Below are positions 1 through 3,000 of a DNA stretch of 64,000 bases, piece after piece. Position 1 is the stretch's first letter. Every line of letters begins with the position of its first letter. The stretch covers positions 18,042,001 through 18,106,000 of the forward strand of contig NC_135252.1 in the NCBI RefSeq assembly GCF_964204865.1, in the 5' to 3' direction. The position numbers and the translations under genes are program-made. The notes beneath the pieces are model-generated. The model worked only from the letters and a program-made list of their open reading frames with translations, did not search any database and was not told where the DNA came from. Source of the stretch: Styela clava (Eukaryota).

Positions 1-3000
1 GGAAATAACAACAGTGGTAATGGGAATAATTCAAAAAATACGTATGCTGCATATAACAAGAGATTGTCACTAGATGAAACTCACAGGTACGATACTAAAG
101 TTTTTCGTTTCTCGAATATTAAACTTCATTGCTTCTTTATAGGAGCCCAAAGCGTCATGTCCCAACCGACCTACTTGCAATGCACGATTATAGTTTTATT
201 TGATGTATGAACGGAATAAATAGATATGAATTTTGGGTAACGGATATAAATCTGCATATCACCTGCAGATAAAAAAGCCTTGAAACATTTTTTTATAAGT
301 CAAAAATAAACAATATATATGTGATTTTTGACCTAACTACGAGCCACCGTTGTATATTGCAGAATATTTCTTGTGACTTCTACACCAACTAAAGAAGGTG
401 TTTCATTCGGTGTTAGTGACGCACTCGTGGTTGGGAAACAGCTTGCAGGTGATTAAAAAAAGAAACGAAATATAACTTTCGATTACTTTGTCAGAATGAA
501 TGAGAAAATAAAGACTGAATGAATGAAAAAATAAACAAACTTTAACATCTGATTTCTATCAGTTCGCAAACACCGCAAAAAAAGTTGCGCATAAGCTATA
601 ATATATTAAACGAGAATATCGGTCAGAGACCGAAGAGTTATCGATCGAAAGTTAGGCGGTCCCCCAAAACAGCGCTCTTACTCCATAGTGACACCTTGTG
701 TCCCATCACTAATTAATTAATACCTCGCTTATTATACGACATAATTCATCCAAATAGGCTTTTGGTACGACATATGATGAATGCATATGCAAAATCTGGA
801 GCAGATTCAATCTTGCTTTCGTGAGATATCGCGTGCTTCTAACAGACAGACAAAGAGACAAACAGACAGACAAATACCTATCAACATACTTACCGATTAA
901 AATCGATAAGTAATTAGGGTGGTCAAAACTGCGGCCCGCCAACACATTCCGTGCGCCCGAAAACAATTTTGGCGTACACTACTAAACCATTTGCAAATTG
1001 TATTTATTAGCACGAACAATTTTGATTTATTTTCTAACTTTTCCAACTGGTAGTAGTCCTTTTCTGACCCCGATGTCGGGATTAATGTTTGTTAAAATCA
1101 CGGAATTTCATTGTTGTATCTCTGAAAAGGTCAAGACGATGGCTATATGGGAATGACGTTCCGTGATCAATAAAAGGAGAATGAATTGTCTTGCGCATAC
1201 ACGACCTTTTCGTTTGAATAGACGTTTTGTGCCTTTATTTCAGTCAAAACACAATTTTTAAGCGTTGGCCACGCGATAGCAGTCGATGTTTTGAGCACTT
1301 CTGGGTTTTCACCGACTGCGGCCCGCGAGACCTCCCTCAGAGGTTTTTGCGTCCATTCAAACTCGCAACACTGGACCACCCTGTCTTGAATAGTTCTACT
1401 AATCTATATAATAATATATTGTTGCAGATGAGTGGAAAACTTTTCTTATTATTGGATTGACCGTGGTTGTTTTCATATTGCTAGCTGTTGTAATCTTTTT
1501 CACAGTCAGGTATTTAGCTTTTTACTACGATCGATAGGTTGGAATAATTAATTTTAGGACAAATAAAATTGTTGAATAAGATTAGAACAATAATCCTTAA
1601 CTGCTACCCTTGGAATACTACTTTAATTTTTTTGTAAACGTGGAAGTTGATTAAATTACCGAATTAAATATTTCATGGCGTAAATCATGGCGTATAATTT
1701 GATACGCAGCAGAAAACAGAAGTATGGCTGAAGTAAACTGGGTTATTCGATTCGAATGCAAATTGTGATCGACACATAAAACTAAGTACCGTTTTTTCCT
1801 CCTTCTCTGGTGTAACCAAAAGATTTTGTTTAACTGCAATAGACAAAGAACAAAATCTAACAAGAAAATCGATCAAATAGTTCAATATCGAAACAATGAA
1901 CAAGGTAATGACAATCACGTTCCTGAATTTTTGATTATCAGAAGTTTTATTTATTCGAAACGTATTAATATGCAGTAAATGAATATGATAAAACCTACAG
2001 ATAACTTGTAATTAGATTAACTGTACAGTTTCACTGCATTATTGAACGAGTATTTTTATTAAGCAGTTGAAGAAGAAGAAATACCAAGCACAAATGTTCC
2101 ACTGAGTAATTTTGAAGATTATTACAGAAATCTATTTCATAATGAGAAAGCATTGTTTCGCGAACAGTTCAAGGTAATCTGAATCAAAGTTGAGAAAATT
2201 GATTTTATTTATACAAAGTATGTTTGAATAATTATTTTAGCATGTGGTAAATACAAAAAGATTATAGCGTAATCATGAATTTTGGATTGGTATCGTTTTT
2301 ATCTAGATATAACTTTTTTTTAGAGAATAAAAATTGAATCAAAAGCAAATATGAAAAGTACAACGTTCGCATCTGCTCCTGAATTGAAGAGGAAAAATAG
2401 ATATAGAAACATATTACCATGTTAGTGCAAATTATTTCTTTTGAGTAGTGCATTTATGAGATGATCAAATTTTATGTAATATCATCATTTTCTTTAAAAG
2501 TATACGATGTATTTATACTATTTGCACTTTGAACAGAGCTCTTGGCCACAGTTTGGTAACACTTTCCGTTTGGCATTATATACCCGATTCAGCAAATAGT
2601 GACTGAGGTGGCTGACATATTATTTAAACTTGAGATTTCAATCAGCGATATTAGTTTAGTCCAACACGTCAGCCACTCGGTTACCGCGCCCTTACAGTAT
2701 TTAAAGTTTGAATATATGTTCAAATTTTAAACATCATTTTTTCACAAATGATTTAAAATAACATTGCCAGAACCAAAGAACATCTAAATATCTAAAGTTT
2801 GTTGTCTTTCTTATAGATGACGAAACTCGTGTTTGGATCAAAGCTAATGACACTGGATACATCAATGCATGCTACGTTAATGTAAGTGGTGTTTTAAATA
2901 CAACTATGATTTAAACTTGATAATTCACACTCTTGAATTCATATTGAAAATAGATATTGAACTAGTGTTGGGGTTGCTTTAGCATCATTATTTTGGCCTC

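Follow-up and report, generated by a model that had tools for sequence, protein, structure and literature searches.

A mosaic intron in a Styela clava receptor cluster points to fusion of a receptor phosphatase ectodomain with an older tyrosine-tailed receptor

In a gene cluster of the sea squirt Styela clava, a fusion probably placed the ectodomain and stalk of a two-domain receptor protein tyrosine phosphatase (RPTP) ahead of the transmembrane (TM) exon and the tyrosine tail that belonged to an older sister receptor, and the resulting genes are likely to be paired receptors, whose members would share ligands and have opposite signalling outputs. The whole stretch of DNA analysed, hereafter the window, is 64,000 nucleotides long (G000:C3:18,042,001-18,106,000). 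We have high confidence in the structural history of the junction, and infer from the sequence that the last part to move would have been the RPTP-type ectodomain, onto an old tail. The locus constitutes a rare stepwise record of exon shuffling, in that the junction, a mobile element, a dead exon and both deletion products are found together.

When the exons of the window were placed on C3 (444 kb) and C2 (220 kb), C3 yielded fragments and 16 modelled genes, the latter lying from 17.952 to 18.243 Mb, and C2 yielded a single copy; some of the nearly identical tandem units may represent haplotypes that failed to collapse. All cluster genes have ectodomain exons for a C-type lectin, Ig, FN3 and a four-exon stalk. 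Five of the 16 end in an 82-nt TM exon followed by two phosphatase domains (four with open frames), and 11 end in a 171-nt TM exon, 10 of these with a tyrosine tail. The tail side on C3 comprises seven A/B-type genes, three A2-type genes and one pseudogene (C); early stops in A1_18106 and A2_18120 come from automated splicing and may be real or chain errors. Gene A (minus strand; ectodomain at 18270..27498) encodes a signal, a C-type lectin, a second lectin-like domain, Ig, FN3 and an RPTP-type stalk, and has an open frame of 805 aa including TM and tail; with TM and tail included, the open frame of gene B (ectodomain exons at 43760..52974, minus strand) is likewise 805 aa long. Pseudogene C (33655..38935, minus strand) is a relic of the donor class, with divergent stalk exons (36160-34881), a frameshifted TM exon and a deleted tail, and without the junction. 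Broken unit D (57564..62185) has minus-strand relics of a donor-class last stalk exon, TM and tail, adjoined by inverted ectodomain fragments on the plus strand.

Several peculiarities of the region were also recorded. The window RPTP lacks two of the three exons of the first lectin domain (C3:18,036-18,038 kb), and its NCBI model, P0004, begins at the second lectin domain. Among three tandem units at C3:18,106-18,117 kb, the same position is an RPTP twice and a tail gene once, with a nearest-neighbour switch near the Ig exon. A near-palindrome of ~1 kb lies in a gene A intron (window 24930-26314), and an RPTP intron has a repeat with inverted ends (window 6916-7609; copies at 40444 and 53477). 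An intronless 682-codon frame at C9:5,489,578-5,490,807, 27% related to the receptor family, is a possible retrocopy.

The window RPTP lies on the plus strand. Its last stalk (juxtamembrane) exon (363..448; 86 nt, phase 1) has 13 genome matches, 12 on C3 and one on C2, and is followed by a pre-TM intron (449-1427), an 82-nt TM exon (1428..1509, phase 1 to 2; sequencing-contig joint 419-1424) and cytoplasmic exons for a wedge region, PTP D1 (with an intact 18-residue stretch) and D2 (1843..8550). The intron is swollen by two repeats, sister RPTP introns being about 176 and 192 nt: an interspersed, probably SINE-like repeat (608..914; second copy at 40031-40333), which is absent from the compact sister introns and at whose ends, 608 and 914, many sequencing contigs have loose ends, and a MITE-like insertion with terminal inverted repeats (about 915..1383). 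The exon sizes, phases and intron starts given in the initial annotation were confirmed (86-nt exon, 82-nt versus 171-nt TM exons, both beginning in phase 1). Similarity had been described as fading over 50-100 bp into the pre-TM intron; instead, with gene-specific indels aligned, it stops sharply after 104-139 nt, at window position 587 in the RPTP, 18159 in gene A and 43656 in gene B, such that alignments define 449..587 (plus strand) as the part of the RPTP intron common to A/B-type genes. Compared with a compact RPTP intron, three A/B-type introns score z 3.4, 11.8 and 17.4 over shuffles in their first 125 nt, and z -0.9 to 0.1 in the remainder.

Beyond this boundary, all seven A/B-type genes have a four-part mosaic intron: ~110 nt of RPTP intron, a MITE, an exon remnant and a donor intron. 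In gene A (minus strand throughout), the 86-nt exon (18355-18270) is followed by the RPTP-type part (18159..18269) and a left-clipped MITE fragment (18120..18158, continuing at 15790-15718), the latter split by a later 2.3-kb insertion found in gene A only (15784..18119; 8-bp target duplication). There follow a dead remnant of the donor's final stalk exon, comprising its last ~40 nt (15639..15681; 83.7% identical over 43 nt, E 6e-7), with the old GT donor remaining, and a donor-derived intron (15306..15638) that matches the one following the divergent stalk exon in A2/C genes. The 171-nt TM exon (15135..15305, phase 1 to 1) encodes a TM without a charged residue, and the tail exon (14428..14576) encodes YETI-x6-YEDI and two more tyrosines. 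Gene B, also on the minus strand, has the same order: 86-nt exon (43845-43760), mosaic intron (43137..43759) composed of RPTP-type sequence (43759-43656), MITE to about 43521, exon remnant (43494-43458) and donor intron, then TM (171 nt; 43136-42966) and tail exons (together 42268..43136).

In all three A2 genes, 67 nt of the RPTP-type first stalk exon persist as a stub, followed by about 25 nt of RPTP-type intron; beyond the same junction lie the MITE, a divergent stalk of four exons, and then TM and tail. The divergent stalk exon, dead in the A/B introns, is alive in these three genes; it also occurs in pseudogene C and three broken units, and at least 18 genome matches to it were counted, every one within the C3 cluster or at the C2 copy. 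Identity between the divergent and RPTP-type stalks is 57-64%, compared with 73-77% for the RPTP copy on C2; thus, the donor lineage predates the C2/C3 split (tree support 100/100). The RPTP copy on C2 (C2:18.415-18.433 Mb) has an internally deleted TM exon with a stop, and lies beside an orphan tail-exon relic.

The MITE, which we take to be of hAT type, is a short dispersed element with 14-bp inverted ends and at least 49 matches, spread over many contigs (40 of 580 candidates scored). In A/B-type genes the junction copy is about 150 nt long and lacks the first ~13 nt of the left end; in two of three A2 genes it runs to the right end. Pseudogene C has no MITE at the junction site, and its intron is alignable only over the last ~110 nt. 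Judged from these sequences, the MITE at the join may be a bystander, pseudogene C having neither the MITE nor a clean empty site. A further copy of the family lies behind the gene A tail exon (13942..14330, minus strand), so that copies flank the cassette on both sides; a composite transposon is not favoured, as the outer left MITE end is clipped.

These arrangements can be ordered into a history of three steps. A deletion or ectopic join would first have connected the RPTP intron, at ~+110-125, with a MITE that lay upstream of the stalk exons of the donor, the join falling ~13 nt within the element and producing a gene with two stalks. One deletion would then have removed the donor stalk to give the A/B class (seven genes), and another the RPTP stalk to give the A2 class (three genes, with the stub and the same junction kept). 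Subsequently, the junction would have served as the 3' limit of homology, upstream of which unequal crossover and conversion trade ectodomain exons between tail types. Monophyly of the tail types is rejected for five of six ectodomain segments, namely both lectin segments, Ig and both FN3 segments (AU p from 5e-53 to 1.3e-4), and is not rejected for tail genes in the stalk segment (p 0.065). For the four intact RPTPs, the nearest neighbour of 41 of 54 ectodomain exons is a tail-bearing gene, at identities of up to 98%; the matched ectodomains at C3:18,120 kb and 18,202 kb, for instance, are 95% identical. The junction is the 3' limit of ectodomain exchange, not a hotspot. As regards direction, a relic of the 82-nt exon is joined to the RPTP intron in the C2 copy, and the TM exon of the distant paralog P0013 is also 82 nt; thus, the RPTP side is probably the ancestral owner of the intron start.

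The initial annotation had read the junction as a cassette swap from which the ITAM receptors arose. Genes A and B are indeed chimeras joined in the pre-TM intron; the tail cassette, however, was not born there, its donor being a sister class of the same cluster with its own older stalk, a remnant of which is preserved in the A/B introns. An outside donor had been envisaged, and a genome-wide search with TM and tail (DNA and protein) found, among its matches, nothing beyond copies in the cluster, a repeat within an intron and a single tail relic outside the cluster (C2:18,432,727-810). Neither of the two results that would have told against the initial annotation turned up: the TM and cytoplasmic exon sets of RPTP and tail genes have no mutual homology (DNA z -0.3; protein z 0.8 and -1.0), and a search for decayed PTP exons behind genes A and B found none; together these exclude simple truncation of the window RPTP.

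The tail fits the ITAM consensus, as first proposed: eight of 10 tails, including those of A and B, fit Yxx[I/L]x6-9Yxx[L/I], a consensus taken from the account in bioRxiv 10.1101/2022.03.04.482883, and two A2 tails, with a 4-residue spacing, are not ITAMs. The RPTP encodes a signal peptide, a single TM, D1 with KNRY, WPD and HC(x5)R, and D2, and is a predicted phosphatase. Values of dN/dS are 0.29 for tails (eight genes), 0.17 for PTP (four genes), 0.41-0.65 for ectodomain segments and 0.65 for the TM exon, with none above 1 in any segment computed. Linked genes combine highly similar ectodomains, homogenised across tail types, with different signalling ends, and the presumed inhibitory member carries PTP domains. 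From established ITAM biology, a Src-family kinase would phosphorylate YxxI-x6-YxxI and a Syk-like kinase would be recruited (on), and D1 of the RPTP partner would strip the phosphotyrosine (off). We give this on/off function of the receptor pairs about an even chance.

Sequencing contigs include the TM-to-tail splice in four of four runs, and several RPTP exon joints, with the reservations that the RNA status of the runs is a guess and that contigs at 90% identity may derive from paralogs. Spliced forms of both types occur in the same runs (X1, X5 and X8). No 86-nt-to-171-nt splice was found among the contig joints listed; P0122 is the only NCBI model to contain it, and the A/B-type models P0003, P0005 and P0010 stop just inside the pre-TM intron. 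Reading into that intron (449-456, 18269-18262 and 43759-43752) gives two residues and then a stop in 10 of 13 copies. Given this stop and the NCBI models that end there, soluble ectodomains are possible. Two genes have a GC donor at the pre-TM intron (C3:18,168,243 and 18,180,546).

Comparable boundaries exist at other loci. A search from P0002 found P0124, and through it an array at C1:24.80-25.39 Mb (L069-L128) of lectin-Ig-FN3 receptors with tyrosine tails, in which six RPTPs and 23 matches to tail-type TM exons were counted. When the gene of P0124 was compared with five of the C1 RPTPs, DNA homology stopped 6-13 nt into the pre-TM intron in every case. At C2:9.48/9.90 Mb, P0127 and the RPTP P0013 are 82% identical in DNA up to ~30 nt into this intron. 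Within the C1 array, one class has a divergent ectodomain yet the same TM and tail, and tails grow by ~31-residue repeats; the TM exon of P0127 resembles that of the tail class, and in the array at C2:9.48 and 9.79-9.92 Mb (L149-L165) P0013 lies beside tail-bearing genes. For P0002, structure prediction without an alignment gave a pLDDT of 36, and the stalk profile returned only TM-segment matches among solved structures.

A tree built from the stalks of 32 proteins (those with a name being tunicate), without partial or low-scoring rows and P0011, P0017, P0143 and P0158, requires 10 label changes between RPTP and PTP-less receptors, at least six of them forced, where the PTP-less label denotes a TM without a PTP motif and may take in truncated gene models; a single clade of PTP-less receptors is rejected (p 0.001). 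The sister of both stalk types is P0137, whose TM exon is 171 nt long and whose tyrosine tail is weakly similar. In Ciona, the PTP-less P0133 and P0134 retain the RPTP's own TM and juxtamembrane sequence (z 23 and 20), which makes truncation a second route to PTP-less receptors. Among other deuterostome proteins, P0156 (named amphioxus TIE1) and P0168 have the stalk domain in front of kinase domains.

A broader reading, which we hold tentatively and at somewhat less than even confidence, is that these are tunicate paired receptors in which the RPTP itself would be the inhibitory arm and a tail receptor capturing its ectodomain the activating arm; capture would have occurred repeatedly, each time in the pre-TM intron, at no fewer than three loci, and the Ciona truncation route would likewise yield ITIM-free pairs. 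The opposite polarity, in which tyrosine-tail receptors are ancestral, the RPTP took the ectodomain and the A/B junction is a later back-transfer, is unlikely. In its favour, the RPTP nests inside tail-bearing genes in the stalk tree (P0137 sister, 100/97), its PTP domains group with C1 RPTPs (SH-aLRT 97; 87/76 on D1), and 171-nt TM exons occur in C3, P0137 and 18 of 23 C1 matches. However, successive captures off a persisting RPTP would produce the same ladder, the tail likeness of P0137 is weak (z 4.5, 1/500 shuffles, one of 42 comparisons), and P0137 falls outside the top 10 for an A2 query.

Slightly less probable is that the tail receptors are phosphatase-less decoys or adaptors, that is, RPTP truncations whose tyrosines would bind SH2 domains of Grb2 or SHP type, some of them being soluble. 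The TM and juxtamembrane tyrosine motif kept by P0133 and P0134, the varied tails of relatives, mostly without ITAM spacing, and the stop at the intron start agree with this, as does a weak likeness of the gene A TM region to the Clavelina RPTP P0020 (z 4.7, one of 32 tests; z 1.4 for the cytoplasmic part alone); against it, canonical spacing is maintained in eight of 10 tails under purifying selection. It is improbable that the mixing is a by-product of ordinary unequal crossover in a tandem array, unselected for pairing. Several copies are broken and no dN/dS exceeds 1, as such a process would allow, but the same layout and boundary recur at three loci, RPTP and PTP-less sisters are found throughout the stalk tree, and purifying selection on both 3' modules counts against neutrality. 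That a foreign TM and ITAM cassette replaced TM and PTP once at this locus, creating ITAM receptors from the window RPTP, is very improbable: the single shared junction, the phase-1 start of both TM exons, the lack of TM/tail homology between the RPTP and tail genes, and the lack of PTP relics fit it, but the cassette is unmatched outside the cluster except for the short C2 relic, the A2/C genes have their own older stalk with its remnant inside A/B introns, and both a 171-nt TM exon and a tyrosine tail are already present in P0137, the sister in the stalk tree, so that the swap is contradicted as an origin and holds solely for the last event.

The membrane-proximal stalk of the phosphatase, with an NGP motif, presumably resembles that of R3 RPTPs, and the initial annotation had placed the gene with PTPRJ and the R3 group. 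That kinship was not upheld: P0004 has two PF00102 stretches (D1 and D2) in place of a single PTP domain, its ectodomain comprises Lectin_C, I-set and fn3 and not FN3 alone, and grouping of D1 with R3 is rejected (AU p 1.3e-4, five R3 rows). PTP_tm (PF18861) had no match in any of the domain searches, one of which covered the 25 of 53 families listed, and our own stalk profile matched none of 38 PF18861-bearing proteins and three of nine PF23144-bearing proteins at E<0.05. R3 RPTPs (PTPRJ/B/O/H/Q), by comparison, are described as having an FN3-only ectodomain and one PTP domain (PMC10815196). The D1+D2 arrangement is instead that of two-domain RPTPs (LAR, alpha/epsilon and CD45), the best matches among solved structures being PTPRS, PTPRF and PTPRA (352-354 bits); unlike these, the Styela RPTPs have a lectin-Ig-FN3-stalk ectodomain, PTP domains that fall in a tunicate-only clade of 13, and arrays with PTP-less sisters. 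No account of the receptor family was found in the open-access literature, in which gene-family tables of supplements could mention the genes.

Among paired receptors, the cluster resembles Siglec-5/Siglec-14, neighbouring genes described as converted in the ligand-binding part with opposite signalling ends, and, as here, giving fusion genes by unequal crossover (PMC4042635); the Siglec pair is described as relying on ITIM inhibition and DAP12 activation, whereas here the presumed inhibitor has PTP domains and the ITAM lies in the receptor's own tail. As in the account of canine CEACAM1/CEACAM28, TM and cytoplasmic exons move as a unit and ITAM paralogs have converted ectodomains; those proteins are described there as having Ig-only ectodomains, an ITIM partner and no enzyme domain (PMC2110893). 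Also comparable are the Botryllus FF/FcoR genes, tunicate clusters in which intergenic recombination mixes ectodomains and intracellular parts with tyrosine motifs; they are probably unrelated to the Styela family and, by their description, have ITIM/hemITAM tails and no receptor phosphatase member (PMC12582321). Known paired immune receptors recruit a soluble phosphatase via ITIMs, and an 'off' member with a built-in phosphatase, sharing its ligand-binding part with ITAM-type sisters, would, if true, amount to a differently wired system in the invertebrates most closely related to vertebrates, and would yield testable candidates for self/non-self sensing in tunicates.
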